This document shows positions 5-63,906 of a DNA stretch of 64,000 nucleotides, one piece after another. Origin of the DNA: a virus; the IMG/VR virus record IMGVR_UViG_3300032268_001483, positions 1-64,000 of that record. One strand, written 5' to 3'. How positions within the stretch are numbered: position 1 is the stretch's first letter; every line of letters starts with the position of its first letter. The notes below the pieces were generated by a model. The model searched no databases and had not been told where the DNA came from. It saw only the letters and a list, made by a program, of their open reading frames with translations. A program made the translations under genes and the position numbers.

Positions 5-2167
5 TTATTTAAATGATTTCATAATTTCTTCTAGTGATTCATTGAAATCTTTCAAATCTGCACCAAATTCACCCATACCTCCATAAAATCCTTCACCTTT
101 GAATTGTAAACTTCTTTTTGCAAATCGAGCTATTTTTTCTGCTACACCTGATCTCCCAGCGCTTGTGGATATTGAGGATAAACCTTCTTTGTAAAGCGGA
201 CTAACTGATAGAGTTTTTGAGTATTTACCATATAAAAATTCATAAATTTCTTTATATAATTCTATTATGTATTCTTTTACTTTTCTATGATCGTGACCCT
301 CATTTTTTTCTAGATTCTTACCCTTTACACTAACTCTATCTAATATTGGATCTAAGAAATCAGTATCAATGGCAATACCTTTCTCCTTTGAATCTTTTAG
401 TATTGTCATAGCCTTTTGTATGTTTTTGAAAGCTTGGATTAGATGTTTTTCATCTGACATAATTTCTGCTCTCCTTGTTGTACCAAATCTCTTTTCAAAA
501 ATCATAAAGCTATCAATAAAAGCTCCATGATTTCTTCTTTCTTTAACAGTAACTGAATCAACTGTTACCATAGCACTTCTTAGAGCTTTTAGATTTTTAA
601 CCATTAGATAATATAGTTTGGAGTCTACTTTCTTATCGTCCTCTTTGTCATCTGTTTTATCCTTATCAATATTTTTTCCTCTATCATCACCATCCGGTGT
701 ACCACCTTCTTTACCAGAGTCATCAGAATAATCTTCTTCGTCATCAATATCTTTCTCATCCACTTCCACAGGTAATAATGATTGATATAAATCGTTCAAT
801 ATTTTTGCCCTGGAACTTCTCAGACCCTTCATCCTTGCCAATTTAAGTGTGACAGCACCAACAATTAAAGATATTCCAATAGTCGCTAAAACTGGTGCGA
901 GTGCGATGATTTTAGCACCCAATGCAGTTGTAACGACAGTCTTTCCGCCTTGTTTTATAATAACCTTTCTTGTTTCAGTAAAAAGCTTTTTAGCAATTGC
1001 GGTTGTAGCACCACCATTTTGATTATATAGAAATCCGTCACCCCAAGTTCCTTCAAGTCGATTAAAAATATCCCCGACGTTTTTGTTAGTTGGATCTGAT
1101 AATTGTTTCAATAAATCTTCTGCTGATACCCCTCTAGCATTTGGATTTATGAATTGTAACATTGCCTCAGCACCCTTTTTTTCATCACCACCACCATAGA
1201 ATTTGAAAGCTTCTTTCAAATTACCAACAGGTTGGTCGAAATTTAATGACTTGCCGGTTTCCTCCATGAATCCATTATTTTGAATAGTATAAGACCATCC
1301 GTTCGGGTCTACTTTGACATTTCTATCTACAATAGATTTAAAAGTTTTTTCGCCAAATTGATCTGGCTCTTCAATTACCTTAGTAAAGAATTCTTTGAAC
1401 CATTCAGTTTGTGCAATCCAACCTAAAATACCAAGTGTCGCGCCAAGACCAGCTAAAATCAATGGTAGTTTATTAGACTCCAATCCTTTAATTCTATCAC
1501 TTGCGAAATTCTTTTCACCAGAAGTTTTCTGAAATTTAGATGATTGAGTATTAGATGTTTTTTGTTCCCTATCAGACCCTTTTCTAGCACCAAACAACTT
1601 ATCACCAATCCATCCGATTATTTCTTCCTCTTCTTCATTAATTGACTGGTAATCAGAATATAAGCTTTGTTGGAGTTCATTAACTTCTTCTTCCGTAATT
1701 TCATCTCTTCTTGATTCAAAAGTTGTGTAAATTGCTTTTAAATCAACATCTAAATGTTTTTTAACAACTTTTCTCAAATCACCAATTATTTCATTGACAA
1801 CATCTGGAGCCAAATATCCTTCTTCTTTCGGATCTTTTTTAGCTGCAGCTACAAGTGAATCATAAAATTGTCCATACATTAAAACACCTTTCAAAAAAGT
1901 GAATTTTTTTCTATCATTTGGAAATTCGGGTGCCTCAATCAAAACCTCACCATATACTTTCTTTAGAAGTTCATTGGATTTTTTTGACATGATTTTCTTG
2001 ATTTCTTCTCTAGATTGAGCATCAACTTTCTTTTTACCGAATATCTTTCCACCAGCTTTATATCTACCAAGTTTAGATAGACCATATTTTATATCCTCCC
2101 AAAAATTTTCATTTAGAGAATCCAAATTTTGATTATCAAATTCGGAAAATTTTACTAATTTATTCAT
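5..2167 (-). CDS. Large hypothetical membrane-associated protein with N-terminal tag variant (putative virion/ejected protein)
   Basis: 720 aa ORF; starts MNKLVKFSEF..SLNE; two hydrophobic segments (LPLILAGLGATLGILGWIA; IIALAPVLATIGISLIVGAV); acidic linker; TAATATATA box at 2187-2195 (minus strand). Confidence 0.55.
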   Translation of the reverse strand: MNKLVKFSEFDNQNLDSLNENFWEDIKYGLSKLGRYKAGGKIFGKKKVDAQSREEIKKIMSKKSNELLKKVYGEVLIEAPEFPNDRKKFTFLKGVLMYGQFYDSLVAAAKKDPKEEGYLAPDVVNEIIGDLRKVVKKHLDVDLKAIYTTFESRRDEITEEEVNELQQSLYSDYQSINEEEEEIIGWIGDKLFGARKGSDREQKTSNTQSSKFQKTSGEKNFASDRIKGLESNKLPLILAGLGATLGILGWIAQTEWFKEFFTKVIEEPDQFGEKTFKSIVDRNVKVDPNGWSYTIQNNGFMEETGKSLNFDQPVGNLKEAFKFYGGGDEKKGAEAMLQFINPNARGVSAEDLLKQLSDPTNKNVGDIFNRLEGTWGDGFLYNQNGGATTAIAKKLFTETRKVIIKQGGKTVVTTALGAKIIALAPVLATIGISLIVGAVTLKLARMKGLRSSRAKILNDLYQSLLPVEVDEKDIDDEEDYSDDSGKEGGTPDGDDRGKNIDKDKTDDKEDDKKVDSKLYYLMVKNLKALRSAMVTVDSVTVKERRNHGAFIDSFMIFEKRFGTTRRAEIMSDEKHLIQAFKNIQKAMTILKDSKEKGIAIDTDFLDPILDRVSVKGKNLEKNEGHDHRKVKEYIIELYKEIYEFLYGKYSKTLSVSPLYKEGLSSISTSAGRSGVAEKIARFAKRSLQFKGEGFYGGMGEFGADLKDFNESLEEIMKSFK

Positions 2168-2288
2168 AAAATAAAGTTTTTATTTCTATATATTAAAAAA
2201 ATTATTTATTTTTTAATTTTTGAGTCGAAAAAAAAATTACTAAACTTTATTTGATTTTATCTTAAAATTTAAATCAAATCTATACCAA

Positions 2289-3518
2289 ATGGACTTCAAT
2301 ACGATTTTAAATACCGGCTTAATATTTTCAGCTATCACCTACTTGGGATATCAATTAAGAACAATTCCCGAACTAATATGGAGTTTCATCAAAAGAAAGA
2401 TTACCTTCAACTTAACAATAGTAGAAACTGATGAACTCTACATCTATATGGAAAGATGGCTTCTACACAATCATAAAAATTCATATAGAAATGTAGAAGC
2501 TTCACTTTCTCCACAAAAGTTCAATTCAATGGACATATCACATGAAGAAACATCCGACCCAACAAAAGATGAAGATAAGCTACATCTTTGGCAATTTTCT
2601 GATAATTTCTTTATTCACTATCGCAATAGAAGAATCCTAATATCAAAAGGTAGAGAAAAATTAGAAGGGGCAAAAGATTTAAGAAATGCCTTTCTAAATA
2701 GCTTCACTATCAGTGGTATCTTCGCTAAAAAATCTATACTAAAGTTAATAGAAGAAGTAATACAATTCAACCAACAATTCAAAAAAGAAAGATTCCCAAG
2801 AATCTATACAAATACAGATTGGGGTGAATGGCAATTCTCTGGTGACAATTACTCTAAAAGTTTTGATAACATCTTCTTTAAAGATAAAGAACTTCTTATA
2901 TCAGACATAAATAACTTTTTAGAGAATAAGACGTGGTATCAGAAAAGAGGTATACCCTATAAAAGAGGTTATCTTTTTTATGGTCTTCCAGGAAATGGCA
3001 AAACTGCCATCGTTCAAGCTATTGCTAGGCACTTCAAAAAAGACATCTATTATATCTCACTTGGTAATATAGAAAGTGATTCTAATTTATCAAGACTTTA
3101 TTCAAATATGAAGTTTGGTTCCCTAGTAGTATTTGAAGATGTAGATGCTTACTTTGAAGGTAGAAAAAACAATAAAGAAAAGGGAATTTCTTTTTCGATG
3201 CTACTTAATTGCCTAGATGGTATATTTTCACAATCTGGGACAATTACGATTATGACTACTAATCATCCAGAGAAATTAGATCCTGCCTTAATCAGACACG
3301 GTAGAATAGATGTTAAAATGGAAATTACTAATCCGAATGGTGAGGAAGTTAAAAAGTATCTTCAAAACTTTTATGAAGTTGAATCTATCCAAGATTTAAG
3401 TTATTTAGATGGTAGTTTATCTATGGTGCAAATTCAAGATATTTGTTTATTGAATAAAGACTCATTAGAAAATACCCTAAATACAATCAACCAAATGATT
3501 GTCGCAGAATTGGTTTAG
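2289..3518 (+). CDS. BCS1-like AAA+ ATPase
   Basis: N-terminal TM segment and BCS1_N-like region; RGYLFYGLPGNGKT (Walker A), FEDVD (Walker B), TTNHPEKLDPALIRHGRID (SRH). Confidence 0.85.
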   Translation: MDFNTILNTGLIFSAITYLGYQLRTIPELIWSFIKRKITFNLTIVETDELYIYMERWLLHNHKNSYRNVEASLSPQKFNSMDISHEETSDPTKDEDKLHLWQFSDNFFIHYRNRRILISKGREKLEGAKDLRNAFLNSFTISGIFAKKSILKLIEEVIQFNQQFKKERFPRIYTNTDWGEWQFSGDNYSKSFDNIFFKDKELLISDINNFLENKTWYQKRGIPYKRGYLFYGLPGNGKTAIVQAIARHFKKDIYYISLGNIESDSNLSRLYSNMKFGSLVVFEDVDAYFEGRKNNKEKGISFSMLLNCLDGIFSQSGTITIMTTNHPEKLDPALIRHGRIDVKMEITNPNGEEVKKYLQNFYEVESIQDLSYLDGSLSMVQIQDICLLNKDSLENTLNTINQMIVAELV

Positions 3519-3577
3519 TTATTTTTATATATAGATGTATGAAATAGATAAATTTCACCATAAAAATAAAAATACAA

Positions 3578-3898: not shown

Positions 3899-4342
3899 AT
3901 GAAACACTTAAAACTATTCGAAAGTTTTGAACAAACGATTTTTGAATTAAGGGATGTGAATGTAATTATGCACATCAATGGAATTATCAAGCTAAGTGTA
4001 GAAAAAGATCCATCTATCAATATCTACAATACAACGACTCAAGGAAGACATTGTATTGTTACTTTCAGACAAACTAATTTAGATGAATTCAAACCGATTT
4101 TAGAACCACTTGGTTATAAAATTAATCCTTCAATTACAGGATGTCCGTTCGAAAAAGAAGAAGAAAATTATAGCAAAATTAACCTGAGAAAGAAAATGTT
4201 GTTTATACATGATATAGGTGACTATTGGTATATACTCAGTTATTATGATTTAAATAAACTAATTCAACTACACTTTTTAATAGATGAAAAAGTCAATCTA
4301 ATAGATAAAATAAAAGAACTGACATCGGATGAGATTTATTAA
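3899..4342 (+). CDS. Hypothetical protein with N-terminal tag
   Basis: MKHLKLFESF start. Confidence 0.65.
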   Translation: MKHLKLFESFEQTIFELRDVNVIMHINGIIKLSVEKDPSINIYNTTTQGRHCIVTFRQTNLDEFKPILEPLGYKINPSITGCPFEKEEENYSKINLRKKMLFIHDIGDYWYILSYYDLNKLIQLHFLIDEKVNLIDKIKELTSDEIY

Positions 4343-6604: not shown

Positions 6605-6670
6605 AATTTGTGATTTTTTTAAAGTTATAAAATATATATCAACAAATATATGAAAAGAGACTTAAAAAAG

Positions 6671-11817: not shown

Positions 11818-11898
11818 TTGTTTTTAATTTGAATACAAATATAGGTAAATTTTTTGATTCAAACAAATTTAATATATAAATAAAAATAAAAATATTTT

Positions 11899-12709: not shown

Positions 12710-13408
12710 TTATCTTTTTACTTTAACTTTTACACCGAAATCTTTTTTACTACTATTTCGGTAACTACTTTTTTGTTCATTTACTTTAACAGTTACCTTT
12801 TTAGAAACCTTTACTTTAAATTTATCTTCCCAAGGAACAAATAGATTTCCTTCAGCAATAACTTCAAGTCTAATGTCACCAACTTGACCTTCTTTCAAGA
12901 TACTTAGTTTTTTAAGTGGTATAATACATTTACCACCTTTTAACTCACCATAAAACATAAGTGTCCAATCTCCTGATTCCACAACAAGTCTGGCTTGAGT
13001 TTGTTTTGGATCGGCACCTTGAATTGAAATATCACAGATAAAATTTTCTGATTTATCTGCATACAAATTATAGAAGTTCTCATTTTTCGATTCATCAAGG
13101 AATTCTTCTTCCGTTACTTCCTCCTCTTCCTCTTCTATTTTTTCGTAACTAGGTTCATAATCAATTTCTTGTTCTGAGTCCTCATATGAATCTTCTTCAC
13201 TTTCTTCTGAGTCTTCTATATTGTCAGCCATAAATGATTCATAGATTGAAGTTTCCTCTTCTTCAGAACTTTCTTCTGTTTCGTTAGAATACTCTTCAAT
13301 TTCTTCTTCCTTTTCTTCTGATTCTAATACAGAATATTTCTTTTTTGAGATTTTATTGAATTTATCTTCATTAAGAAAATCACCGAATTTAAAAATATTA
13401 TCTTTCAT
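12710..13408 (-). CDS. Tagged protein with acidic N-half and beta-rich C-domain (putative virion protein)
   Basis: MKDNIFKFGDFLNE; long E/D/S tract. Confidence 0.55.
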   Translation of the reverse strand: MKDNIFKFGDFLNEDKFNKISKKKYSVLESEEKEEEIEEYSNETEESSEEEETSIYESFMADNIEDSEESEEDSYEDSEQEIDYEPSYEKIEEEEEEVTEEEFLDESKNENFYNLYADKSENFICDISIQGADPKQTQARLVVESGDWTLMFYGELKGGKCIIPLKKLSILKEGQVGDIRLEVIAEGNLFVPWEDKFKVKVSKKVTVKVNEQKSSYRNSSKKDFGVKVKVKR

Positions 13409-17378: not shown

Positions 17379-17390
17379 TGGAGATTTTTT
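17358..17390 (+). terminator. Intrinsic terminator
   Basis: 13 bp stem aaatctccactaa/ttagtggagattt plus T-run. Confidence 0.7.
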
Positions 17391-17402
17391 ATATATAGAT
17401 TC

Positions 17403-18113
17403 ATGAAATATCTTAAAACATTTGAATCTCACTCAAATAATTATTTTGATTTAGACTTTTCGAAAATAGAAACCACTGATACAAGAGGGTATTACTCTAT
17501 ATTGGAAATTCTCAAAACTAAAGAATTAGACCTACAAGAATTTTTGAGTGATGTTCGTTTTAACCTACTTCAATTCGGTCTAATAACAGAATCAACTAAT
17601 TTTAAATTAATAGGTACTGGACAATATGGTATCGCCTTTTCATTCTATGACAAAGTTTTAAAAGTTACTACTTCCAAAAAAGAATTTGATACTTCTTATG
17701 AATTCATTGATATGGAATATGAAGGAGCTGTTAGATACTATTTAGCCTTTCAGTATTTGAATTTACCATTATGGATTATTATCCAAGATAAGTTGAGTAC
17801 ATTACCTAAAATGGAGAGAGATATTTATACAACACTCTATTATTTAGGGGCGAACGATATGGATAACCCTGAATTTAGTAGTGTAGAAGAGTTGATATCT
17901 GCACTACAAAGACGATTAAAAAATCCAAACGAAGAAGATGAGCTACCATCTTATGAAATTAGAAAGCGTGATTTAAGAGAATATTTTAGAAAATATTCTG
18001 AACTTAGAGATAAATTGATAGCAAATGGTATATCAGTAGATGATTTACACGGAGAAAATATTGGATTGAAAGATGGACAAATAGTTCACTTTGATATAAT
18101 GAAAGTTGATTAG
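17403..18113 (+). CDS. Protein kinase-like (ePK/APH fold) protein with N-terminal tag
   Basis: MKYLKTFES start; IGTGQYGIAF (Gly loop), VLKVT (Lys), DLHGENIG (catalytic loop), HFDI. Confidence 0.75.
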   Translation: MKYLKTFESHSNNYFDLDFSKIETTDTRGYYSILEILKTKELDLQEFLSDVRFNLLQFGLITESTNFKLIGTGQYGIAFSFYDKVLKVTTSKKEFDTSYEFIDMEYEGAVRYYLAFQYLNLPLWIIIQDKLSTLPKMERDIYTTLYYLGANDMDNPEFSSVEELISALQRRLKNPNEEDELPSYEIRKRDLREYFRKYSELRDKLIANGISVDDLHGENIGLKDGQIVHFDIMKVD

Positions 18114-18532
18114 TTTATTACACCAAAACCTCTCATTATGTTTAGTAATTCCTCATGTAGATTTCCGATTTTTCTCGGTGTACTTTTAGATAAATAAAGT
18201 TCTACGTTATTTGGTGAAACCCAAGGTGTTACACCATTATCATCAATTTGTAATACATATTTTATTTTTGAAAGAGCCTCTGCAATTTTCCTTTCATCTC
18301 TTGAGTTTGCAGCATTTTTCAAAAGTTTGAGATGTATAGTTAGTGCTTCTACTTCTTTTTCAAACTTACTTAGAAACATGGTTTTAATTACATTTCTATA
18401 GAATACAAATAACTTGTCTGAATTTAGTTTATTCGTGGTAACATCTATATTCATAAGGAATTTCTCCAGATTAAAAACTTTATTATCTGACATAAAATCT
18501 TCGAATAGTTTAATATAATTTGTTTTTTTCAT
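18110..18532 (-). CDS. Hypothetical protein with N-terminal tag
   Basis: MKKTNYIKLFEDF. Confidence 0.6.
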   Translation of the reverse strand: MKKTNYIKLFEDFMSDNKVFNLEKFLMNIDVTTNKLNSDKLFVFYRNVIKTMFLSKFEKEVEALTIHLKLLKNAANSRDERKIAEALSKIKYVLQIDDNGVTPWVSPNNVELYLSKSTPRKIGNLHEELLNIMRGFGVIN

Positions 18533-22541: not shown

Positions 22542-22745
22542 ATGAAAGAAAAAAAACCATTTCAATTTAAATTAGAAACAGATCCACTGATGCACTTTTT
22601 TTCAATTTGTTCATCAGTGGTTTTTTCATATTTTTATTTTCCCGGGAATTTAGCTTCTCCTGTTACATTAGTTGCACTACTCATCAGTAATTTTATTTCT
22701 GTAAACATCGTGAGTAATTTTATGAGATATATAAAAGGAGAATAA
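22542..22745 (+). CDS. Small membrane protein
   Basis: Two hydrophobic segments. Confidence 0.45.
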   Translation: MKEKKPFQFKLETDPLMHFFSICSSVVFSYFYFPGNLASPVTLVALLISNFISVNIVSNFMRYIKGE

Positions 22746-22752
22746 GAAAGAT

Positions 22753-22947
22753 TTATTTCAAAATAAACCCATCCACGACAATAATTCTATCGAATTTCAG
22801 AATAGAAATGTCTTTCAAATATTTACTTTCTAATCTATCATATTCTTCAACTGATAAATTACTAAACTCAAGTTCATCATTCAGCTTATCCAAATCCTTT
22901 CTACTTTCTTGAGCTTTTTTTACCATTTCTTGATACAGTTTTATCAA
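22753..22947 (-). CDS. Hypothetical protein
   Basis: 64 aa ORF in a same-strand run. Confidence 0.45.
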   Translation of the reverse strand: MIKLYQEMVKKAQESRKDLDKLNDELEFSNLSVEEYDRLESKYLKDISILKFDRIIVVDGFILK

Positions 22948-22986
22948 ATCTTCTGCTTTATCTGATAAGTAACATATATCTATTGT

Positions 22987-23253
22987 TTAAGCTATTACAA
23001 AATCATTAAAATAAAAACAAGCAGTTTCAACTAATTCATCATATCTTGAATCAACCCAAATATCAACAACTAACCCAAAGTTGTCATCACTTACTTTAAC
23101 ATCTACGATGTTTCCTGGTTCAGCAATATCATTAATAAAATCATTTACGCAATCAACAAAGAATAGTGATTCGGTTTTATCATTATCTAAGTTTGTGATG
23201 ATTGTATTATCAAAAAATAAATTACCTTTTTGTATAGTTAAGAAGTTGCTCAT
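22987..23253 (-). CDS. Hypothetical acidic protein
   Basis: 88 aa ORF; TATCTTTG box at 23276-23283 (minus strand). Confidence 0.55.
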   Translation of the reverse strand: MSNFLTIQKGNLFFDNTIITNLDNDKTESLFFVDCVNDFINDIAEPGNIVDVKVSDDNFGLVVDIWVDSRYDELVETACFYFNDFVIA

Positions 23254-23320
23254 AGTATTTGTATTTTTAGTGATACAAAGATAAGGCTAAAAATTGAAAA
23301 ATCAAATATTTTTTGAGTTT

Positions 23321-25230: not shown

Positions 25231-25312
25231 AGTTTTTATATTTAGCTACAAATATAATACAAAGCTTTGAAACCACAAAATTTTTTAAATAAAAAAAACA
25301 CAAATTGTGGTT

Positions 25313-26665: not shown

Positions 26666-26691
26666 ATATCTATATATAAAAAAGCTATCTT

Positions 26692-30944: not shown

Positions 30945-30974
30945 AAAAAAGAGGATTTAAAATCCTCTTTTTTT
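30943..30974. terminator. Bidirectional terminator
   Basis: A8-gaggattt-aaaatcctc-T-run between converging genes. Confidence 0.7.
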
Positions 30975-32510
30975 ATTTTGTCTGAAATTTTCAAAAGTTC
31001 TTAAATATTTCAAAGATTCCTTTTTTATTGTAATACCTCTACGAAGGTTTGGATCGGATAAATCAGTTTTAGTTTCTACTTCAGCAGTTTTAGTTCTGAT
31101 TTTATATTTAGTTTCACCAACTTTTACTCTAGTCTCACCAGTTTCTACTTTTTTGATTGGTTTTTTCACATCTAATTCCTTTCCTGGAAGACTTCCTGTT
31201 CCGTGAACCGCGGATTTTTTGGGTTTGAAGTTATCTACAAAATCTTGTACTTTTTCATCTATATTAAATTCTTCTAAAATTTGTTCCTTTGATACTCCTG
31301 TTTTCTTAGTAATACCGTCAACAAAATTTAGAAAACTTTCTTTATAATCACTCATCGCCTTTTCAACAAATTCTTTCATAACACTTTGTCTTTCGTCCTC
31401 TGTTTTAGCTGATTTGAATTTATTTAAGTATGATTTAATTTCATCTTTGTTCATTTTTTTTACTTTAATATCCATGTCTTTTATAGAAGAACTTAAATCT
31501 TTCGGTATCAATAAGAAATCATACAAAAGATATAGTTGACCGTCAACTATATCTATAATGTTCTGTTCTCTAGCCTCACCCAAATTAGTAGCCTTTCTGA
31601 GTCCAGATCCACCAATAATTATATCATTCATATTTGTTAAATTGTCGACATGCACACCGTCTTTAATTACTGGAGAATTTTTCCCAAAAATTCCTTGAAA
31701 TAAGAATAAATCCGCATCACCTGGTATTTTACCACTTTTGATAATATTTTCATAGTGTTCGGTACCTAATTGAAATGCAACGTGTATAGTTTCAAATTTC
31801 AATTCTTTATCCGCTGTAGTTCTAATCGAAACATAATCCGTATCTTTGAAATTTCCCTCACTATCTACAGCCGCACTCTTCATTTCAAGTACATTAAGTT
31901 TAATAAAATTTTTATTGCCTTTATCCAAATGAGATTGATTATTGGCAGCAGTTCTTACCAATAAGTATAATCCATTTCCAGAGGCAATAATTTTTTTATT
32001 TTTCCCATCTCCTAAAGTCAATGATATTTTACCAGATTCATTTACAACCTCACCATCTATACTTATGAAGTCAGTAATATCAGTTCCCAAGTTATTAACC
32101 TTCTTTTTAGCACCAGCTTTTTTCGCCTCTGCTTCTGATATATATTTGCCTTTTCCAACAACTTCTGACGAAGTGCGTATAGCCTCCTCAATATCTTTTT
32201 GATAAATTTCTACATAGTGAGTTGGTACACCAGCTTCTGGTGATGTGGGTAGATTTTCTTGTATATCTTTTATATTATGAGCCGGATTGGGTAAATTATA
32301 ATAAACCTCATGATCCGATGTTCTCGCAACTCCAAATTCAATAGTTAATGTAGATTGTTGCATTGCTTGTTGAAGACTAATTGTGTATGGTGATGCTACT
32401 TGACCAGTTGCTGTAATTGCCTGCATTATGAGCGCAATTTGCTCCATTGATACTTCTTCATTTATCATTTCACTTTCGAACTTTTTCAAGTGTTTCAATT
32501 CTTTTTTCAT
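30957..32510 (-). CDS. Large protein with the tag at both termini
   Basis: N: MKKELKHLKKFESEMINEE; C: KESLKYLRTFENF; TAATATATA at 32531-32539. Confidence 0.6.
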   Translation of the reverse strand: MKKELKHLKKFESEMINEEVSMEQIALIMQAITATGQVASPYTISLQQAMQQSTLTIEFGVARTSDHEVYYNLPNPAHNIKDIQENLPTSPEAGVPTHYVEIYQKDIEEAIRTSSEVVGKGKYISEAEAKKAGAKKKVNNLGTDITDFISIDGEVVNESGKISLTLGDGKNKKIIASGNGLYLLVRTAANNQSHLDKGNKNFIKLNVLEMKSAAVDSEGNFKDTDYVSIRTTADKELKFETIHVAFQLGTEHYENIIKSGKIPGDADLFLFQGIFGKNSPVIKDGVHVDNLTNMNDIIIGGSGLRKATNLGEAREQNIIDIVDGQLYLLYDFLLIPKDLSSSIKDMDIKVKKMNKDEIKSYLNKFKSAKTEDERQSVMKEFVEKAMSDYKESFLNFVDGITKKTGVSKEQILEEFNIDEKVQDFVDNFKPKKSAVHGTGSLPGKELDVKKPIKKVETGETRVKVGETKYKIRTKTAEVETKTDLSDPNLRRGITIKKESLKYLRTFENFRQNKKRGF

Positions 32511-32608: not shown

Positions 32609-33631
32609 ATGCGTTTAAAATCATTTGAAAACTATTTAATAGATGAAGAATTAATCTATAATCCCGAAGGCGTTAAACCAACAGGTACTGAGACTTCAAC
32701 TTTTTCGAACAGACTTGTTTATTGGAATAACTTACCTAAAAAATTTAAACAAGAAACTCTAACAGAAGAAGAGAAAAAAGATTATAATAGAATTCTTAAT
32801 GCGAGAACTTGGTGGTTGATGACTGATTTGGAAAATTCAAATATAGACGAAAAGAAAAAGAAAGAATATCAAAAACGTTTCAAAGATTTTGAGGAGGCTT
32901 TGGATAGAGCATACAAACAAATACCCGATGATTTCTTTGTTAGAAAAAATAAAAAACACATATCAAGTTCACTAAGAAGAAGTTCTTTAAAAGGACCTGA
33001 AAAAAACATGAAATTTGAACCGACTTCATATAGCAAAATCAAGGTGAAAAGTTTTGCTAATGAAAAATTGAACTACACAGCACCTGTAAGACCAAAACCA
33101 AAAGAAGTTTCAGAAGTTTTACAAAAATTTAACGATTGGTTAGAAACTGTAGAGATGCCTTGGAATGAAATATCTTCATATTTGGGTGTAATAACAAAAA
33201 TAGATCAAAAAGAGAATCCAAGCTATGATACTGGCGAGATACCCAAATTAGTTGGAAAAACACTAAACATGCTAACAGATTTAGTACAATATTCTTCTGA
33301 ATTGGCTGTTGGAGATGATTTTAATATGTCAAAAAGCGAATATGAGGAAGCCAAATCACCTTTTGGTAGAGCAAAAAATGATGCGATGACTAAAATTGAA
33401 AAAATTGAAGAATACCTATATAGTGACTATTATATACCAAGAGGCGGTGAAAAGTATCGAGGTTTGATAGAAAATAAAATAAGAGAAATAGAAAGAACAT
33501 TCAAAACAAAAGATGCGGATTCCGTATTGAAATTAACCGAAGAACTTAAGAAATTAATCAATGAAGCCGACTTTAGATTCAAACAAAATGAAAGTTTGAA
33601 TAACATACTTAGATTTAATCAATTCGGGTAA
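32609..33631 (+). CDS. Helical protein with the tag at both termini
   Basis: N: MRLKSFENYLIDEE; C: NESLNNILRFNQF; TAATATATA at 32582-32590. Confidence 0.6.
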   Translation: MRLKSFENYLIDEELIYNPEGVKPTGTETSTFSNRLVYWNNLPKKFKQETLTEEEKKDYNRILNARTWWLMTDLENSNIDEKKKKEYQKRFKDFEEALDRAYKQIPDDFFVRKNKKHISSSLRRSSLKGPEKNMKFEPTSYSKIKVKSFANEKLNYTAPVRPKPKEVSEVLQKFNDWLETVEMPWNEISSYLGVITKIDQKENPSYDTGEIPKLVGKTLNMLTDLVQYSSELAVGDDFNMSKSEYEEAKSPFGRAKNDAMTKIEKIEEYLYSDYYIPRGGEKYRGLIENKIREIERTFKTKDADSVLKLTEELKKLINEADFRFKQNESLNNILRFNQFG

Positions 33632-37003: not shown

Positions 37004-37711
37004 ATGAAACATCTAAAAACCTATGAATCATTTAATTATGATGTTTATTCATTGAATGAAGAGGAAGAAATACTCGGTTTTCTTAAAAAAGTTGGATCTA
37101 CGATTGCTAGCGCATTCTCTTCTGTCGTGAATTTTTTCAAGAAAATGTTTAGTAAACTATTCACTTTCAACGTATCTGCTTATAAAGCAAAAGCAGAAAA
37201 ACTTGTAGAAGACGTTCAAAAGACTGAACAGTGGAAAAAATTCATCGAATCTATGGTCGGTAAATTAAGTTCTGAGCAAGTAGCAAATCTTGAGTCAACT
37301 GTCAAAACTACACAATTTTCAGAGACAGAATGTGAAAATATGGGAGAGGCAGTTAAATCACTCACAGGCGCACAAGAAAAAGTTGAAGAAGTAACAGAAA
37401 AATTGAGATCTGGGCTCATCACAGAAAGCAGAGGATATTATTTGCTTAGAGAGGCACAAGAACAAAAAGAAGATGCTGAAAAACAATTGAGACAGGAAAT
37501 TGAGAAAAAGATGGGTAAACTTCAGGCTGGTGTCTTCATAACTGGTCTTTCAGCTTTCATTGTGACTACTATTGGTCTTTTATCAGGTAGTTTTGCAGTT
37601 GCGGTAATCGGAGCAGGTGTATTAGTTGCTGGTCTTATAGCTGCAGCTATAGCTGCTGTTGCAATTGTAGCAAAGGGCGCAAAAACAGGTGAGTTACCAA
37701 GAGGTTTGTAA
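37004..37711 (+). CDS. Tagged protein with amphipathic N-helix and C-terminal TM hairpin
   Basis: MKHLKTYESF..SLNEEEEILGFLKKVG; long Ala/Gly/Ile-rich hydrophobic C-terminus. Confidence 0.65.
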   Translation: MKHLKTYESFNYDVYSLNEEEEILGFLKKVGSTIASAFSSVVNFFKKMFSKLFTFNVSAYKAKAEKLVEDVQKTEQWKKFIESMVGKLSSEQVANLESTVKTTQFSETECENMGEAVKSLTGAQEKVEEVTEKLRSGLITESRGYYLLREAQEQKEDAEKQLRQEIEKKMGKLQAGVFITGLSAFIVTTIGLLSGSFAVAVIGAGVLVAGLIAAAIAAVAIVAKGAKTGELPRGL

Positions 37712-38545: not shown

Positions 38546-40174
38546 TTAACTTATAAATCTTATAACAAAAGTTCTAAACATTTCTAAGTCACTATTCAAT
38601 TTTCCCAAATCTTCACTCATTATTGAGTTTATAAAACTATCAGTATGATAAGTATATCCACACAAATTGTTAATTACACGTCTTATATATGCAAATTTTC
38701 GACTACCGTTAAATCCTGCTCTGATAGAATTAATTTTATAAAACAAAAATTCAGTATCATCAAAGGTATTTATTTCCTTCTTTTTAAGAATTTCATAAAA
38801 TTCGTTGAAAACTGCTTTCAATTTATCAACAAACTCGATATAAACTTTAGGATTATTTTCATTTGGCGAAGGCAACGAATTATTTGATGCCCTTTCCTTA
38901 ACAGATTTCTTGAATGTGTCAATACAATTTTCAAATTCTAAACTAAAGTTATTATTATTAGATATTCTAGTTTTGATAAGATTTATTAAATACCTTTGAT
39001 AATATTCTTTATCATCATCATCGATGAATAAATATAAATAATTTACGAATTGATTGAAATCATTAGTACTACCTGAGAGTGCAAAAGCTAATGCCTTTGG
39101 ACCACCACACATTTTTAGGACCGCACCTTTAAGATTCTTCAACTCTGGGTCGATTTGGACTCTTTTAGAAATTTCTTCGATGTATCTATTAATGTTTTTA
39201 GATTTAATCTGTTGGTCAGTCATAAGAGCAAGTGCTCCCTTTTTTCCAACTTCTCTTTCTTTTGAAGTATCACTCTTTTTTTTGTAGTCAGACTTTTGCA
39301 AATCTAGGTAATTCAAGACAATAGCAAAACTAGCTTTTTTGATTAGTGGTTCTATGTCACGATGTATTTCGACTTTCAAATATTGGTTCAAAATTCCATT
39401 CCATAGATAAGGATTCACTTCTTTGACAATATTTTCTTTAGTTTTTATTGGCTTAACTAGATAGGGTTCACCCGAATAATTATTAGTACTTGAAATTTGC
39501 CAACTACAATTACCATATTTTTTCCACTCATATCCAGAGGGTGACGAACCACAATATGAATTCTGTATCATATAAACACCATATTCTCTGTATACGGTTG
39601 CTATAAGGAGACTACCCCCGTTTTCTAATTTTATCAAAACTTTATCTCCAGTTTTCAACTCACTTAAGTCCATTAAACTAAGTGTTTTTACTTTTGTATA
39701 GTTTTCTATATTATCAGTGTTCTGAGCTTCCCTTATACTTCCATCAACACCAGTATATGTGATATAATTACCTTTAGTGTCAAACCAAAATTTTATCCAT
39801 TTCAAATTTTTTACTGATGACGGCTGAACACCGGTTCCTTTACAATTAGGGCACTCTACCATTCTTGTGCCGCTACCCCAGTTTCTTTTAATCTTACCCT
39901 GTTGACAGAATTCTCCCCTAATACCATTCTCGAATAACCCGAAACTTTCTGCTTCACAAGGCTCATCCTCATAGTTGATATTTAATTCGAGTGCCTTTTT
40001 AAAAGGTAAATATTGAAAAAAATCATCAGAAAATTGTGACATAGGAAAATCTATCCTACTTGCAATATTTTTTAGTTGATATAGGAATTGTTCCTTTCCG
40101 GTTGGAGAAAGAAATTTCATTGTTTTTCCTAAAATCTGAGATTCAAATGCTTCAAATAACTTTAAATATTTCAT
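38546..40174 (-). CDS. Large tagged protein with CxxC zinc-ribbon-like motif
   Basis: MKYLKLFEAFES; FCQQG..ECPNCKGTG. Confidence 0.6.
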   Translation of the reverse strand: MKYLKLFEAFESQILGKTMKFLSPTGKEQFLYQLKNIASRIDFPMSQFSDDFFQYLPFKKALELNINYEDEPCEAESFGLFENGIRGEFCQQGKIKRNWGSGTRMVECPNCKGTGVQPSSVKNLKWIKFWFDTKGNYITYTGVDGSIREAQNTDNIENYTKVKTLSLMDLSELKTGDKVLIKLENGGSLLIATVYREYGVYMIQNSYCGSSPSGYEWKKYGNCSWQISSTNNYSGEPYLVKPIKTKENIVKEVNPYLWNGILNQYLKVEIHRDIEPLIKKASFAIVLNYLDLQKSDYKKKSDTSKEREVGKKGALALMTDQQIKSKNINRYIEEISKRVQIDPELKNLKGAVLKMCGGPKALAFALSGSTNDFNQFVNYLYLFIDDDDKEYYQRYLINLIKTRISNNNNFSLEFENCIDTFKKSVKERASNNSLPSPNENNPKVYIEFVDKLKAVFNEFYEILKKKEINTFDDTEFLFYKINSIRAGFNGSRKFAYIRRVINNLCGYTYHTDSFINSIMSEDLGKLNSDLEMFRTFVIRFIS

Positions 40175-41856
40175 ATTACTGGTCCAATTGTTTCTATTTT
40201 AATTCCCTTAGATTTAAGTGAATTAATATAATTCTTGTTTTCTTTTCCTGATGCTAAATCACCAGAAATAACTATTTTCTTAAGTTTCAATCCTTCAACA
40301 ATACCTTTGAATTCAATGAAATCTACCGTATAAATTAAGTGTAATTCCTCTAAATTTTTGAATACCGAAATATCTCTTCCTTCCAGTTCACAATTTATAA
40401 ATTCTAGTGATTTTATATTTGGGCAATTTTGATTCAGATCAGATAAAATTTCATTTTTAAATTGACATTTATCAAATGAGAATGTATTTGATTTCAAGTT
40501 TTTGAATGGATCTAAACTATTTAATTTCAAATATCTAAATCGGGTAATTTTTGGATCCAATTTCAAATCAAAAAAGTTTTGAGGCAACATAGTTGTATCT
40601 ATATTCATTTCCTCAATTCTTGCTTTTGGTGATATAATACATTGTGACCAATCTGAATCTTGAGCGAATGTTATTGATTTTGCATTAATACCAATTAGTT
40701 TTCTTCTTTTGATTCCGAGTCTGTCCATATAAGGATCATCTATATAATTTATATCTTCTGGTATATCAGGTGAGAATATATACGTATCGGCTCCTCCTCC
40801 TGTTGATGACTCCATTCCTGTGTACTTTTGAATTATCTCATTCATCAATAACTGCATTCTATCCGGATAAGCTCTATCAAAATATAATCGAAACTTTTTA
40901 TCATCTTTAGATTGAGGCATATCGATATTTCTAATCATCATTCTACTCAAAGGCAATTGTTCAGAAATCAGTACACCTTTAGAATCCAAAATTGGACTAT
41001 CAAAAATTAAGAAAGCCGGAACAGAATTTGGATCGAAGACATTTCCCATAACTTGAGTTCTATATCCACCTCTATACAAATGTTGACAAGAACCATAAAA
41101 TCTCGAAACAGACATATTTAAAATATCTTTTGCATTATGTTTAATAGAAAGGAACATATCTCTAGCATATACATCGACTTCTACAAGGTAACTATCACCA
41201 CCAAAATCTTCCTTAGAAGCAGAAATTACTCTCAACACTTCGCCAGAAGAGAATTTGAAAGCATCAACTGTTTTATCAGGATATAATCTATTATAATCTT
41301 CTACAAATCCATTAATATTTACTAAGTTTTTCGAGAAAATAATCTCATCTTTCTCTCTTTTTCTTTTTATTGGTTTCTTAGTTTCTTCATCAAGTATAGG
41401 TCTACCACTTTCATCTCTAATCATGATTTCGTCAGCTTGAGTTTCACTCATAGATATTTTTTTAAAAATATTTTCTGAAAGAACTGAGATTTGATTAATT
41501 GTTGGTTTATGTATATCAAAATTATTTAAAATTTTTCTAAACTTATCATTATCGTTTTTGATTAAGTCTAAATCTATAGATTTTTCTAAACACTGTTTGA
41601 ATTGATTCGGTAGTCCACCAAAGAATTCATATACAACATCTAATCTAGCACTAAAAAAGGTAGAAAGAGCTTTGATCTTATCTTCTTCTGTCAATTTCCA
41701 TTTACCTTGTATAATATTATCGGTTGCTTCGATTTCTTCTAAATCTAAAATCCTTTCACCCCAGAGAGCTTTCACTACTTCTTTTTGTGGTGGTAAAATA
41801 GAATCTCCGATTTTAGCCTCGCTTAAAAATTTTTCTCGAGATTTAATCCACTTCAT
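40171..41856 (-). CDS. Tagged protein with SC..DRxY domain (paralog 3) and C-terminal LRR-like region
   Basis: MKWIKSREKFLSE; GSCQHLY, SRMMIR, YFDRAY, PYMDR; LxxLxF repeats at C-terminus; TAATATATA at 41879-41887. Confidence 0.6.
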   Translation of the reverse strand: MKWIKSREKFLSEAKIGDSILPPQKEVVKALWGERILDLEEIEATDNIIQGKWKLTEEDKIKALSTFFSARLDVVYEFFGGLPNQFKQCLEKSIDLDLIKNDNDKFRKILNNFDIHKPTINQISVLSENIFKKISMSETQADEIMIRDESGRPILDEETKKPIKRKREKDEIIFSKNLVNINGFVEDYNRLYPDKTVDAFKFSSGEVLRVISASKEDFGGDSYLVEVDVYARDMFLSIKHNAKDILNMSVSRFYGSCQHLYRGGYRTQVMGNVFDPNSVPAFLIFDSPILDSKGVLISEQLPLSRMMIRNIDMPQSKDDKKFRLYFDRAYPDRMQLLMNEIIQKYTGMESSTGGGADTYIFSPDIPEDINYIDDPYMDRLGIKRRKLIGINAKSITFAQDSDWSQCIISPKARIEEMNIDTTMLPQNFFDLKLDPKITRFRYLKLNSLDPFKNLKSNTFSFDKCQFKNEILSDLNQNCPNIKSLEFINCELEGRDISVFKNLEELHLIYTVDFIEFKGIVEGLKLKKIVISGDLASGKENKNYINSLKSKGIKIETIGPVI

Positions 41857-45203: not shown

Positions 45204-45626
45204 TTAAGAAGTTGGTAATTCCAGTAAAGTTTTTGAAGATAAATATCCTAACACTTCTTCCCATTCATCAGCTTCATAATATTTGTATTGAGGGTCTTCC
45301 GGAAAATCATCTTCATCATATAGCCTTAATATTTGAGTTATGATGTAACGATCGTCACCTAATTTTCTTATCAAGATTTCTTCTGGTATATCCGAATTTA
45401 GTGACAAAATTGACATCCACATTTCACTTGGGCTAAAGCCTAAACCATCTTTGGGATAAAGATAATCATCTACTAATCTTCTATTTTTTTCCACTAATTG
45501 TACAAAAAAATTTTTCTCAGTTTCTAAAAATTCCTCTCTACCAAATAAATTCAATTTTGTTCCTACTTCACCACTGGTGATCTGACTTGGTTGCCTAAAA
45601 GATTCAAATAATTTCAAGTATTTCAT
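45204..45626 (-). CDS. Hypothetical protein with N-terminal tag
   Basis: Likely start MKYLKLFESF at 45626 (track extends to 45677 through the promoter palindrome). Confidence 0.65.
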   Translation of the reverse strand: MKYLKLFESFRQPSQITSGEVGTKLNLFGREEFLETEKNFFVQLVEKNRRLVDDYLYPKDGLGFSPSEMWMSILSLNSDIPEEILIRKLGDDRYIITQILRLYDEDDFPEDPQYKYYEADEWEEVLGYLSSKTLLELPTS

Positions 45627-46247: not shown

Positions 46248-46307
46248 AAAAAACTTTTTCTTTTTATACTAAAATTTAATACTTAGTTTTTTAATATATA
46301 CTCTATT

Positions 46308-56918: not shown

Positions 56919-58076
56919 TTATTTATATTTCCAAATAAATCCATTTGAATGTTTATATTTACCCACACAACACATTTGAATACAACTACCTCTACTTCCT
57001 GTTTTTTTAGCAGCCTCTACAATTGAATCAAATTCCATTATGAAGTTACCATCTAAATCATACTGACAAACAGATTTTAAAGTCTTATTTGAATATTTTT
57101 TAGGTGGATTATCACCATAATATCTCCATATATATTTACCTGCAGATTTGTATTTTCCTCTACAACACTCACCTATATTACCATGATTTATACCAGTAAC
57201 TTCCGAAGCCCCAAACATTGAATCAAAATCTCTAATCCAATTACCATCTAAATCATACTGACTAACCTTTTTAGAATTTTCATCTAACTTATCCAGATTT
57301 AAATCAAACCACTCATCCTTATATCTCCAAATAAATCCACCACAAGTTTTTTGTTTTCCAATACAACAACCAGAAACATAGAGATTCAAATCTTTTTGAA
57401 TCCTTTCCGCACTCTCCCACTCACCTACTAAATTACCCACTAAATCATACTGTAAGACTACCTTTTGACCAGTAGCGAGCTGTTTCATCCACTCAGATTT
57501 ATCTTTCTCTATTCCCCATTCCTTTAAACTTCTGAATACTTTTGTCTCACTACAATTTAACTTCTCTGATATCTTTGGCATTGATAAGTTTTCCACAATG
57601 TAAAGTTCATATAATAAATCTTTATCAATAAATGTTTTTGGTCTATTATTATAGCCAGGTGTTTCTAAATATTTTTCTTTTAACTTTTCAGAAATTTTTT
57701 TCTTATGTTCATCAGAAAGTTTTACACCTCTTTTAGATTCACTCATTCTTTTCTTGGTTTCTTCGGTGTGTGAATATCCATTACCACCTTGTCCACCCTC
57801 AGTGAGATTTGTGAGATTACATCCTTCATTTCTCAATTTTTCTATCCAATATTTTTCCCAGTATTCCCAATTATCCTCTTCAACAGTATCCAATGTAGAT
57901 ATTATGGGTCGCTTTTCATTTTTTAATAGTGATTTGATCCATGATATTTTATGTGACTTTCTACCTGAATAACACTCTTTTATGTGGGAATATAATCTCT
58001 GTTTCAAATATTGTTTTGTCTTACCCACATATCTTATTTCACCAGATTCATCTGATAGTGCATAAATAATTACCAT
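56919..58076 (-). mobile_element. Free-standing GIY-YIG homing endonuclease with NUMOD3 and NUMOD1-like repeats
   Basis: IYAL..RYVGKT..RL..H..E..N; HTEETKKRMS (NUMOD3); repeated VxQYDLxGNxIxxFxS..C..K.K.AGxxIWRY. Confidence 0.88.
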
Positions 58077-58950: not shown

Positions 58951-60759
58951 ATGAATACGATACTTCAAGATATAACTAACAGAACTTCCAATATAGGGTC
59001 ACTTGTACTCCTGGTAAAAAATAATTCTGAATACTTAGATTTTATTAATCATAATGTTCCAGAATCTATTTTAGATAGACAGCTATCTGAAAAAATTTAT
59101 TATTTAGTTAATAATATAAACACACCTCAGTTATGTAGATGTGGAAAACATCTATCTTTTATTGGCTTTAAAAATGGTTATAGAAAGAGTTGTGGTGATA
59201 GGGAATGTTATGTGAGTTCAAGAAAAGAAACTTGTATTGAAAAGTTTGGTGTAGATAATCCAAAAAAATCTAAAGAAATTTTGGAGAAAGAAAAAGAGAA
59301 CATTCGTAAAAAATGGAATGGTGAACATTTCATGCTGAATAAAGACATAAAAGATAAGTTTAAGAAAACAATGATTGATAACTGGGGAGTTGAATGGGCT
59401 CAACAAAACAAATCTATTAAAGATAAATCCCTAGAAACTTGGAATAATAATCCAGAAAAGGTGAGTGTAATAGAATCGAGAAAAAATAAATTATTGAAAA
59501 AATCCGATGAGGAGAAAAGTATCATAGAAAATAAAAAAAGAGCAAAGATAATTGATAAATTCAGTACCTATGAAAACTTCATAAATTTCAGAAAAGAAAA
59601 GATTGAAGAGGCTTCTATAGAAAAGTATGGAACTCAACACCATCTTTCTTCTCCAGAAGTAATTAAATTGAGAATTGATAAATATAAAGAAAAAATCACC
59701 CAAAAGATTTTAGAGAAATTACCCAATACTTTAACTTATTTAGATAGGTTTCATAATAAGAATCTTACTGACCACTACATTAAATTGCATTGTCAAAATT
59801 GTGATAGTGAATTTTCTATAACAAGACAATTATTAGTAAATCGAATTAACTCCGGAATAGAAGTGTGTTTGAATTGTAATCCAATATTAGTTGGTAAGTC
59901 TAAAGGAGAAGAAGAAGTATTTGAATTTATATCATCAATTTATAGTGGACAAATTTTACAGAGATATAGAATTGATGGAAAAGAAATTGACATTTACTTA
60001 CCGGATTTGAAAATAGGATTTGAATATAATGGACTATTTTGGCATTCTAACTTACACAAAAGCTCACAATTTCATTTAGAAAAAACAAAATTTTTTGAGG
60101 AAGTTGGAATTAAATTAATTCATATTTGGGAAGATGATTGGTTATATAAAAGGGAAATTATAAAATCAATAATATCAAATAAGATAGGTGCTACTAAAAA
60201 TAAAATCTTTGCAAGAAAATGTCAGGTAAGAGAAGTTGATAATAGTCAAGTTCGTAGTTTCTTGGAAAGTAATCACATACAGAGCTTTGTGGGCTCACGA
60301 GTTAAACTTGGACTTTTTTATAAAGATGAATTAGTTAGCATAATGACTTTCGGTAGTCTTAGAAAATCTTTAGGTTATAACAATGTCGAAGGCAATTGGG
60401 AATTGTTGAGATTTTGTAATAAATTAGATTGTTCTGTAGTCGGTGGTGCCTCTAAATTATTCAATTATTTCTTGAAAGTATGGAAGCCAAGTCAAGTCAT
60501 AAGTTTTTGTGATTATAGTAGATCAGATGGGAATATCTATAAAACTTTAGGATTCGAGTTACAACATCTTTCAACTCCTAACTATTACTACATCGTAGAT
60601 AGTGTTAGAAGACATAGATTCAATTATAGAAAGGACAAATTAGTTACTAATGGATCTGATTCTAATCTAACAGAATCACAAATTATGCAAAATTTAGGTA
60701 TAAATAAAATTTATGACTGTGGTATGCAGAAATGGATTTTTATCCGAATTGAAAGTTAG
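58951..60759 (+). mobile_element. Hef-like homing endonuclease (Vsr/PD-(D/E)XK core with C-terminal GNAT-like domain)
   Basis: FGVDNP/YGT..H repeats, CxxC motifs, EIDIYLPDLKIGFEYNGLFWHS, HIWEDDW, VGGASKL, YDCG. Confidence 0.75.
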
Positions 60760-62246
60760 CCAAACTACAAATCTTACCTTTTACAAGTCCTTTTTCACAA
60801 CAAGTTCTAACTAGTTGAATTGAGGCTACAACTAAAAGTGTATATTTCAAAATAGTTAAAACTGGGCCGATTTGTGTTTCTAAAATTGCTACCAAACTTG
60901 CACCTATAATTGGAGCAACTACTTTAGCAAATCCGCTAAAAATAGACTTTAATTTTTGATTTTTATTTATCGATACTTCACCAGCCTGTTCAATCGATTC
61001 CTGTGCTTGTTGAGTAGGATCACCCTCATCTTCTGCCTCTCCCGAAATAATTTCATCTACTTTAGGCAAAACTTTACCAAATGCTTTATATTTATATGCT
61101 TTATCTAATCCCCTTCTAGCAACTCCTGATATTAGATATAGAGCGCCATTTGTTCCATACTTCAAAGCCTTCAAAACAAGATAGTCTATAGGTCTAATAA
61201 TTAATTTAAAACATTCTAAAACCCAACCCATTACACCCATTCTACCTTTAACTGCCTTTTCTTCACCACCCTTTTCACCAGATGATTTTGAAACTATATC
61301 ACCTTTCTCTTTGTAGAATTCATTTTCTTCTTTATCTTTAAAATAGAATTTATCACCTTCTATCTTTGTTATTTCTTTTTCTATTTCTTCTCCAGTTTTA
61401 GATTTATATTTTACTTTATCACCAACATTATATTCTTGAGCTTCTTGTACCTCATTTATTATCATATCAACATCACTCAGATTACCACCTTCAACTAAAA
61501 AACCTTTGAGTGAATAGTAAACTCTTTCGAAATTAAATTTACTATAAAGATTGAATGAGTCCTTAACTAAATCTTCAATTTTATCTAAATCATCAACTGC
61601 ATCATATTCTGATGCCTCCTCTTCTAATTTCTTTTTTACTTCATCAGAGGTGTTACCTATCTCACCTTTTGAAAATCTACTTTTGATACCGTTCAAGTCT
61701 GATACAACTTCACCTGTTTCAGTTGAGAAAGTTTCATCTAAAATAATTTCAGATAAGGCTTCTACTGATGGATTTTTTTGATTTTCTATTATCCATCCAC
61801 CTACACTTTTAACTAATGTGATCCCGGCAGTTTTTGTGATTTCCCAAAGAGCTATAAATACTTGACTTATTTTTTTAAAGATATTTGATATGGTATCTTT
61901 TATATTTTTTAAAAATTCAGTAAAACTATTATAAGCTTTTCCAACAATATTAATACCGCCTTCCCAAGCATTTTTTGTTGCGTTCCATATTTTACCAAAA
62001 ATATTTTCTTCTTCTAAAATTGAACTATCACTATTTAAAAAACTTCCATAAATTTCTTTAATGATAATTTTATCTAATTTTTTAAAATTTATATTTTTTT
62101 TTGAATTGTGTCACGTCAATTCTTTCTGATATAAGACAACTTTCAAAAATTGATTTATTCGATTCTCTACCTATATTATAAAAATAGTATAGATTATCAA
62201 CCTTTCTACTTTGACTAAAACTTGAATAATTTTTTATATATCTCAC
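60740..62246 (-). pseudogene. Tagged membrane-associated protein split by a frameshift at an A9 run (about 501 aa if joined)
   Basis: GTG at 62246 overlaps the paaA stop and gives [10 protein letters not shown].. (54 aa, stop 62082-62084); the +1 frame is open 62110-60740 with no ATG/GTG/TTG for its first 138 codons; T9 at 62094-62102 on + strand. Confidence 0.7.
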
Positions 62247-63178: not shown

Positions 63179-63180
63179 TT

Positions 63181-63906
63181 TTAAATCTTCTTTAATTGAA
63201 CTACAACTTGATTATCACCACCAGTGAGTTCACATCTAAATCCACCTTGTGTCACTCTTGTTGCCCACTGAATTAGATCAGCATCTCTGGTAGCATCTAA
63301 TTGATTATTAAAAGATCTCCTAATTTTTTGATTAAGTGCATAATCGTTTCCATACAATCCACCACCTTTTACAGGTGTTCTTATTTCTAACCAATTAGAA
63401 CGTTTTAGATTTACTTTTTTGTAATTATATTTTGTTTTCAAAATTATTTCTAATTCTTTCAGAAAATTTTCTATTTGTTCTTTTACATCAAATTCAGAAC
63501 TTTCTACAAGTCCACCAACTATGTAAAATTTTATTTCTAAATCTTCCCAACTTGGTTTAACTCGGAAGTTTGGAGACTCACCGCTTCGATGATAAAATTG
63601 TTCGATTTCTGATAAAATTTTGGAAAGTACTTTAATATCGGTCAAACATCTACCACCACCACTATGAGGCTGGATACCATCAGCTACACCTTTTAAATTA
63701 ATTGTAATTTCTTTACATTTTTTTGTATCTTTTTTTACATTAGCAACATCAGTAAAAAATCTATTATCAGAAGAAACAAATCCTTCTACAAGTCTAAATT
63801 GTTTATTGTCAACGTAGTCGATAAATAGATCTTCTATATCTTCGTTATCTAATTTGAAACTTTCAAATAGACTTTCAAAGTTGTTAAATTTTTTTAATTT
63901 TTTCAT
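63181..63906 (-). CDS. Hypothetical protein with N-terminal tag
   Basis: [16 protein letters not shown]. Confidence 0.6.

Follow-up and report, generated by a model that had tools for sequence, protein, structure and literature searches.

An N-terminal peptide resembling the T4 capsid-targeting sequence on many unrelated proteins of a megaphage: a candidate cargo-loading system

IPI, IPII and IPIII, which are internal proteins of phage T4, are otherwise unrelated, but each begins with a peptide of about 10 residues, the capsid-targeting sequence (CTS), in which two aromatic residues three positions apart are followed by [Ile/Leu]-x-Glu and then by a small residue. The CTS is reportedly known from the work of Mullaney and Black and, to our knowledge, the partner that it binds has been an open question since the 1990s. 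We describe here a related peptide tag that stands at the N-termini of about one gene in five of the IMG/VR virus record IMGVR_UViG_3300032268_001483, a viral DNA of 117,129 bp and 30.5% G+C, of which the first 64 kb (64,000 nucleotides) are called the window. For T4 IPIII, the first 10 residues suffice for incorporation, residues 4 and 7 being the chief determinants of targeting and residues 8 and 10 those of processing, and the prohead protease gp21 cleaves after L/I-x-Glu (PMC9026906). Propeptides of T4 also show affinity for the prohead core (PMC9026906; PMC3012670).

Two other kinds of system are close enough to be compared. The large phages phiKZ, 201phi2-1 and SPN3US pack tens of different proteins in their heads and process them behind Glu with a diverged prohead protease of the T4 type; the propeptides of inner-body and ejection proteins are cut by this gp21-like enzyme at S/A-x-Glu (PMC9026906, PMC5694885, PMC7411985). 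These phages belong to another lineage, however, and their propeptides are long and variable with no shared address peptide; they are known from virion mass spectrometry. The cargo-loading peptides of encapsulins are likewise short and conserved and dock unrelated cargo inside a shell of the HK97 fold, but as a rule they stand at the C-terminus, attach to the shell protein itself and stay on the cargo. The likeness to them, and to cargo loading by scaffold mimicry in general, is an analogy without sequence relation.

The tag is 10-14 residues long and comes in two forms. Type A reads Met-Lys-[His/Tyr]-[Leu/Ile]-Lys-x-[Phe/Tyr]-Glu-x-Phe and was scored with an iterated 10-position matrix at a threshold of 12 bits; type B reads [FYW]-x-x-[FYW]-[LIVF]-x-Glu and lies close to the N-terminus. 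A simple pattern alone picks out 26 of the 149 N-termini of the record, as against 12 sites in its other 36,700 residues. At 12 bits the type A profile gives 25 matches in the 149 open reading frames (ORFs), all but one (24/25) inside the first 30 residues, and the type B pattern starts at residue 4-8 in six ORFs where 0.6 are expected. Counting either form, 29 of the 149 ORFs of the record are tagged, and the window holds 19 of them (16 type A and three type B), with one further tag straddling the window end and five to eight weaker variants. This tally agrees with the first-pass annotation of the window, which had claimed about 27 tagged ORFs and whose listed coordinates all prove to be ORF starts. 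Besides the initial Met, the most conserved positions are the aromatic [FY] at position 7 and Phe at position 10; in the long form, [ILV] at 11 and Glu at 13 follow.

None of 261 spurious (unselected) ORFs scores as tagged, and shuffling the first 40 residues leaves 0.1 matches per proteome. A strict DNA pattern for the tag occurs 10 times in the record and not once when read backwards. Because the tag positions use all synonymous codons, including both the serine and both the leucine codon families, selection acts on the peptide and not on a DNA repeat, as had been claimed. The claim that the bodies behind the tag are unrelated was sound at the level of BLAST comparison: once the tags are taken off, 163 tagged proteins of the record and of a 642-kb relative sort into 127 BLAST groups, of which 117 have a single member; the exceptions are one family of 22 and one of seven, both in the relative.

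The record, whose completeness CheckV puts at about half, is assigned to the Mahaphage clade as a fragment of a megaphage genome. Its UvsX-like recombinase has its nearest counterparts in uncultured phage genomes of 634, 636, 642 and 735 kb (45-66% identity), and Lak phages come next. These 634-735-kb genomes are the Mahaphage clade, the largest phage genomes known, with Bacteroidetes as predicted hosts (Al-Shayeb et al. 2020). Compared by megablast with the phages in GenBank, 10 kb of the window gave no match. The 642-kb genome (LR756502.1), which has 994 ORFs and is 95% coding under the standard code, was analysed whole; its relationship to the record is distant, because 47 of the 149 record ORFs have a homolog there, at a median identity of 44%.

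The first-pass annotation had proposed that the motif be sought beyond the window, and a scan of the whole record and its relatives for the tags finds them recurring in both. The 642-kb genome carries 133 type A and 24 further type B tags, on about 157 of its 994 ORFs (about 16%), many of them in long tandem arrays of small genes; 133 of the 144 matches of the type A profile fall inside the first 30 residues. The 735-kb genome has 70 tags, 11 of type A and 59 of type B (5.5 expected for type B), some of which are identical to the T4 core at seven of eight residues. In IMG/VR, a strict pattern is found in at least 117 stretches, where it is common and clustered in viral contigs, while in 596 Gb of prokaryote genomes it is found in 106 stretches, nearly all singletons. 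Among the 80 IMG/VR loci that were kept, 178 of 1102 ORFs are tagged, a frequent form being Met-Lys-His-Ile-Lys-Leu-Phe-Glu-x-Phe-[Ile/Val]-Asn-Glu-[Ala/Ser].

The link to T4 was assessed with a profile of tag positions 5-14, built from megaphage tags only and run against every ORF candidate beginning with Met in a six-frame reading of the T4 genome (NC_000866), 1580 in all. With 12.8-17 bits, the first five places go to gp61.1, IPI, a spurious ORF that lies within the tRNA cluster, IPIII and IPII; the sixth candidate reaches 4.6 bits. The tag core aligns to the T4 CTS at a three-residue offset, and the likeness is visible only once the three extra N-terminal residues of the tag are allowed for; the original 10-position profile, laid in register on the T4 internal proteins, gives negative scores. 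At this offset, the aromatics at tag positions 7 and 10 are the counterparts of the mapped IPIII targeting residues 4 and 7. The [LIV]-x-Glu of the cleavage site, with Glu at position 8-16, is present in 15 of 22 tags of the record, 73 of 138 in the 642-kb relative and 119 of 178 in the IMG/VR loci, or 53-68% of tags as against 14-18% of controls, a three- to fourfold enrichment. By sequence the tag is best read as a targeting sequence of the T4 type. The first-pass interpretation is supported in part: the connection with the T4 CTS that it drew is backed by the profile ranking, by the mapped residues and by a head module in the relatives in which the same motif is repeated. The T4 gene 61.1 (NC_000866 18966-19130, minus strand) encodes a hypothetical protein of 54 residues, and its start outscores those of the known internal proteins on the tag profile.

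Several differences from T4 go with these likenesses. T4 has three or four bearers of the CTS, compared to about 30 in 117 kb here and about 157 in the complete relative. In the common megaphage form, three additional residues stand ahead of the core and the processing half is often missing, and the tagged bodies are mostly acidic (in the 642-kb relative, more so than the untagged proteins), whereas those of T4 are basic. The scaffold of the megaphages is fused to the protease and holds tandem copies of the motif, neither of which is true of T4 gp22. Packaging in the megaphages, finally, is a prediction from sequence.

Like T4, the megaphage relatives have a head module of the gp20/gp21/gp23 type. 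In the 642-kb relative it keeps the T4 gene order of portal (PF07230, E 1e-58), protease and gp23-like capsid protein (PF07068, E 4.5e-28), with a pair of tagged genes immediately upstream of the portal; T4-type head modules are also present in the 735-kb, 482-kb and 462-kb relatives and in the 80 IMG/VR loci. The head maturation protease of the 642-kb relative is a protein of 699 residues (phrog_207, E 6e-28, with a weak match to PF03420) in which residues 300-440 are made up of tandem 14-residue repeats, each with the heptad Tyr-Ser-Glu-Tyr-[Ile/Leu]-Ala-Glu. This heptad has five of its seven residues in common with the T4 core Tyr-Gln-Glu-Phe-Ile-Ala-Glu and includes a gp21-type cleavage site. 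When the type B pattern is counted at internal positions across the whole 642-kb proteome, the protease-scaffold protein comes first with 11 matches and no other protein has more than two. In T4 gp23, the same pattern ends exactly at residue 65 of the 65-residue propeptide. A search of the Protein Data Bank (PDB) with the sequence of the 642-kb relative's protease gave no match. The gp23-like capsid protein of this relative (LR756502.1 227452-229167) has a tag-like stretch with an Ile-Asn-Glu end at residues 33-43, which could be the end of a propeptide.

The repeats are kept in 77 of the 80 related IMG/VR loci and in the 735-kb and 482-kb genomes, and tags accompany them: 11 repeats go with about 157 tags in the 642-kb genome, and 14 repeats with 70 tags in the 735-kb genome. 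In Lak-A2 the protease is present, but an acidic low-complexity region replaces the repeats, and tags are not above chance. Because the scaffold repeats contain the same motif and the same cleavage site, the tag most likely imitates one scaffold repeat. No strict copy of the motif is found in T4 gp22, gp67 or gp68, so that the case for mimicry extends to the megaphage scaffold only. A search of the accessible literature with the tag strings and the scaffold heptad returned no relevant paper, and none that pairs 'capsid targeting' with megaphage terms.

Targeting to the prohead is, in our judgement, the likely main function of the tag, and the phage probably pre-packs dozens of unrelated proteins for injection. 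On this view the tag is a short linear motif that stands clear of the folded body; its two aromatics would bind the prohead scaffold core and, in many copies, the following [Leu/Ile/Val]-x-Glu would allow the head maturation protease to remove it. With a scaffold part of 10-14 tandem 14-residue repeats that carry the same motif and cleavage site, tagged proteins would be built into the scaffold as it assembles and be set free inside the head by the protease that takes it apart, so that dozens of unrelated, soluble and mostly orphan proteins, plus a few enzymes, would be delivered to the host with the DNA. A more ambitious proposal, in which mimicry of these 10-14 identical docking and cleavage units loads 70-160 different proteins (7-16% of genes) into the head as a ready-made proteome to be injected for host takeover and counter-defence, is tentative and somewhat more doubtful than not.

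The bodies that carry the tag offer a view of what such cargo might be. Known domains are few, namely PPK2, P-loop kinase and DUF5872 in the record and SET, GNAT, HNH and primase-like domains in the 642-kb relative. Membrane-like segments occur in one of 162 tagged proteins of this relative compared to 121 of 772 untagged ones (p 7e-10), and in the window the secreted and lipoprotein ORFs lack the tag, as the annotation had correctly stated. The 542-residue protein has at least 169 homologs; among the 120 listed, at 31-81% identity, nearly all are tagged, E8, F10 and S12 are invariant, and the tag is the most conserved segment. In a confident AlphaFold2 model of this protein (mean predicted local distance difference test score 84.5), residues 1-12 are unstructured, as one would expect of a linear motif that a partner recognises. 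A Foldseek search with the model against the PDB gave no match at E <= 0.001. The protein has conserved Cys pairs (a possible zinc ribbon) in a beta-rich plus helical fold, and its gene adjoins that of a tagged 561-residue protein (38546-41856, minus strand). In the P-loop kinase, similarity to solved adenylate and shikimate kinases starts at residue 21-23, so that the kinase fold begins, with its first strand, only after the tag and a short linker. The PPK2 domain (PF03976, E 4e-66) occupies residues 235-435 of its protein; ahead of it is a 235-residue N-terminal extension of unknown family, with a type B tag at its head.

It might be thought that such bodies keep their tags by common descent or through the shuffling of cassettes, fast-evolving tandem paralogs having retained their 5' ends, perhaps as recombination anchors, with no role in targeting. 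Short recombination anchors have been proposed for T-even internal-protein loci, and the long tandem arrays of the 642-kb relative, its body families of 22 and seven, and the existence of ORFs that are two-tag fusions fit this history. It is nonetheless improbable as the explanation of the tag, for it has to accommodate 117 singleton bodies, the unrelated folds of PPK2, P-loop kinase, SET, GNAT and HNH proteins, and a tag that stays invariant across a family at about 35% identity. The synonymous sites also differ, and efficient recombination would call for higher and longer DNA identity than this leaves.

A promoter-like motif, [AT]ATATATA, bears both on expression of the tagged genes and on another explanation of the tag. 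Among genes of the 642-kb relative with an upstream gap, it is found within 35 nucleotides (nt) of 54 of 69 tagged genes and of 136 of 468 untagged genes (odds ratio 8.8), and in the tagged genes it lies mostly 4-8 nt before the ATG, a spacing that suggests nearly leaderless mRNAs. Ahead of the portal, protease and capsid genes, its distance is about 20 nt. On mRNAs without a Shine-Dalgarno sequence or leader, the initiation of translation might constrain the first codons and in this way produce a common N-terminus; besides the spacing, a mild over-use of Lys AAA at codon 2 and of a few other codons could be read in this sense. We regard such an origin as highly improbable, because 64 untagged genes of the relative share the 4-8 nt spacing, all synonymous codons are used, both Ser and both Leu families among them, and the motif is lacking in spurious ORFs and shuffled N-termini. 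Furthermore, 2-7 residues can precede the tag in homologs of the 542-residue protein, and the same peptide recurs inside the scaffold protein. The motif resembles the T4 late promoter TATAAATA and falls into two spacing classes, 4-8 nt and 17-27 nt before starts, with the head genes of the relative in the second; examples in the window are at 17385-17397, 26671-26683 and 46290-46302.

A number of observations weigh against targeting to the prohead. A cargo load amounting to 13-16% of all genes would be without precedent. Roughly one tag in three has no [LIV]-x-Glu, and where there is one the position of the Glu varies (8, 11 or 13). The PPK2 protein, the P-loop kinase, the primase-like protein of the relative and the tail-anchored 235-residue protein of the window are odd bodies for a cargo, and we know of no report that places T4 gp61.1, for all its CTS-like start, among the virion proteins. 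The covariation of repeats and tags is based on four genomes. The head genes PF03420, PF07068 and PF07230 were not found on the 117-kb record, and the presence of a head module in this phage is inferred from synteny with relatives. Tagged genes of the record are not enriched for the promoter-like motif (7 of 16, compared to 35 of 95 untagged), which is common there before many genes, UvsX and GlmS among them; since the promoter argument holds in the 642-kb relative and not in the record, it lends weak support only.

Some of these points would suit a conserved linear motif that serves a phage partner in something other than packaging, for instance timed destruction by the head protease or another protease, hand-off to a chaperone, or docking to another assembly inside the cell. 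A peptide that is conserved but unstructured, that sits on enzymes expected to act in the cytoplasm, and that is found on 13-16% of the genes of a complete relative is what such a role would call for. It would, however, leave unexplained the match to experimentally mapped positions in T4, the presence of the motif as the repeat unit of a head scaffold, and the loss of tags in a relative without the repeats, and we consider it unlikely. The reading of the tag as a prohead-targeting signal has consequences beyond this phage. If the more ambitious proposal of scaffold mimicry is true, it would reveal by far the largest virion cargo known and would answer the question of what a capsid-targeting sequence binds; the recurrence of the motif as a scaffold repeat unit offers a concrete and testable answer for the T4 partner as well. 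The largest known phages carry hundreds of orphan genes, and an address label of this kind would place about a sixth of them inside the virion at one stroke, with delivery alongside the DNA as their likely role, making the labelled orphans candidates for anti-defence or takeover factors. Like the T4 sequence, which is already so employed, the tag could also be put to use in filling capsids with foreign proteins.

As to the head module of the phage itself, in relatives at 55-65% identity to record proteins the protease lies 7-10 kb from the homologs of record positions 97-111 kb, and because of this synteny the module probably lies a short way past the record's last position. One protein of the phage is also encoded on a 191-kb contig. 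The record closes (116911-117114) in a tandem repeat coding for a 9-residue unit, the probable reason for a break in the assembly so close to where the head module is expected.

Table 1. Tagged ORFs and weaker variants in the window (window coordinates; scores are those of the type A profile unless a pattern is named).
Feature	Coordinates	Strand	Score or remark
Type A ORF, 147 residues, tag at residue 1	3899..4342	+	27 bits
Type A ORF, 236 residues	17403..18113	+	22 bits; promoter-like TATATATA 5 nt upstream
Type A ORF, 140 residues, tag from residue 5	18110..18532	-	15 bits
Type A ORF, 86 residues	18541..18801	-	25 bits
Type A ORF, 133 residues	22114..22515	+	27 bits
Type A ORF, 517 residues, tag from residue 6	30957..32510	-	20 bits N-terminal, 23 bits C-terminal copy
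Tagged ORF, 340 residues, short form with Ile-Asp-Glu end	32609..33631	+	13 bits
Type A ORF, 235 residues, C-terminal hydrophobic anchor at residues 205-223	37004..37711	+	27 bits; hydrophobic segment
Type A ORF, 60 residues	38347..38529	-	18 bits
Type A ORF, 542 residues, conserved megaphage family	38546..40174	-	24 bits
Type A ORF, 182 residues	43363..43911	+	16.5 bits; tagged homolog in 642-kb relative
Type A ORF, 140 residues from ATG at 45626	45204..45626	-	23 bits
Type A ORF, 213 residues	49720..50361	-	27 bits
Type A, P-loop nucleotide-kinase-like protein, 251 residues	54976..55731	-	18 bits
Type A small ORF, 54 residues, GTG start	62082..62246	-	15 bits
Type A ORF, 241 residues	63181..63906	-	20 bits
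Type B (T4-like) ORF, 260 residues	11899..12681	+	type B pattern at residue 7
Type B ORF, 232 residues; motif closely like the T4 gp23 propeptide end	12710..13408	-	type B pattern
Type B, PPK2 polyphosphate kinase, 450 residues	25313..26665	-	type B pattern at residue 7; PF03976
Weaker variant, 101 residues	3578..3883	+	6.5 bits
Weaker type A variant, 637 residues	4329..6242	+	9.7 bits
Weaker variant with Leu-Ser-Glu end, 561 residues	40171..41856	-	6.3 bits
Weaker variant, 473 residues	46308..47729	+	N-terminus read; under both thresholds
Weaker variant, 253 residues	55778..56539	-	11.1 bits
Weaker variant with Ile-Asn-Glu end, 126 residues	56536..56916	-	11.5 bits
Weak variant, 720 residues	5..2167	-	N-terminus read; under thresholds

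The 517-residue ORF of Table 1 has its second tag-like copy at window positions 30981-31010 on the minus strand, at residues 501-510 and eight residues before the stop. This copy may be the remnant of a downstream tagged gene that was fused in frame, and a double-tag ORF also occurs in the 642-kb relative (22663-23577).

Promoter motifs of the host-type Bacteroidota form TAnnTTTG precede lipoprotein genes, genes for secreted proteins and some small genes, and are found before no tagged gene; in the window they lie at 6605-6660, 11818-11870, 23254-23300, 25231-25290 and 36600-36653. As in T4-like genomes, genes resembling those of homing endonucleases, of the HNH and GIY-YIG types by PHROG, occur in the record, two of them in the window (58951-60759, plus strand, and 56919-58076, minus strand) and others at 65166-66980 and 111762-113366.

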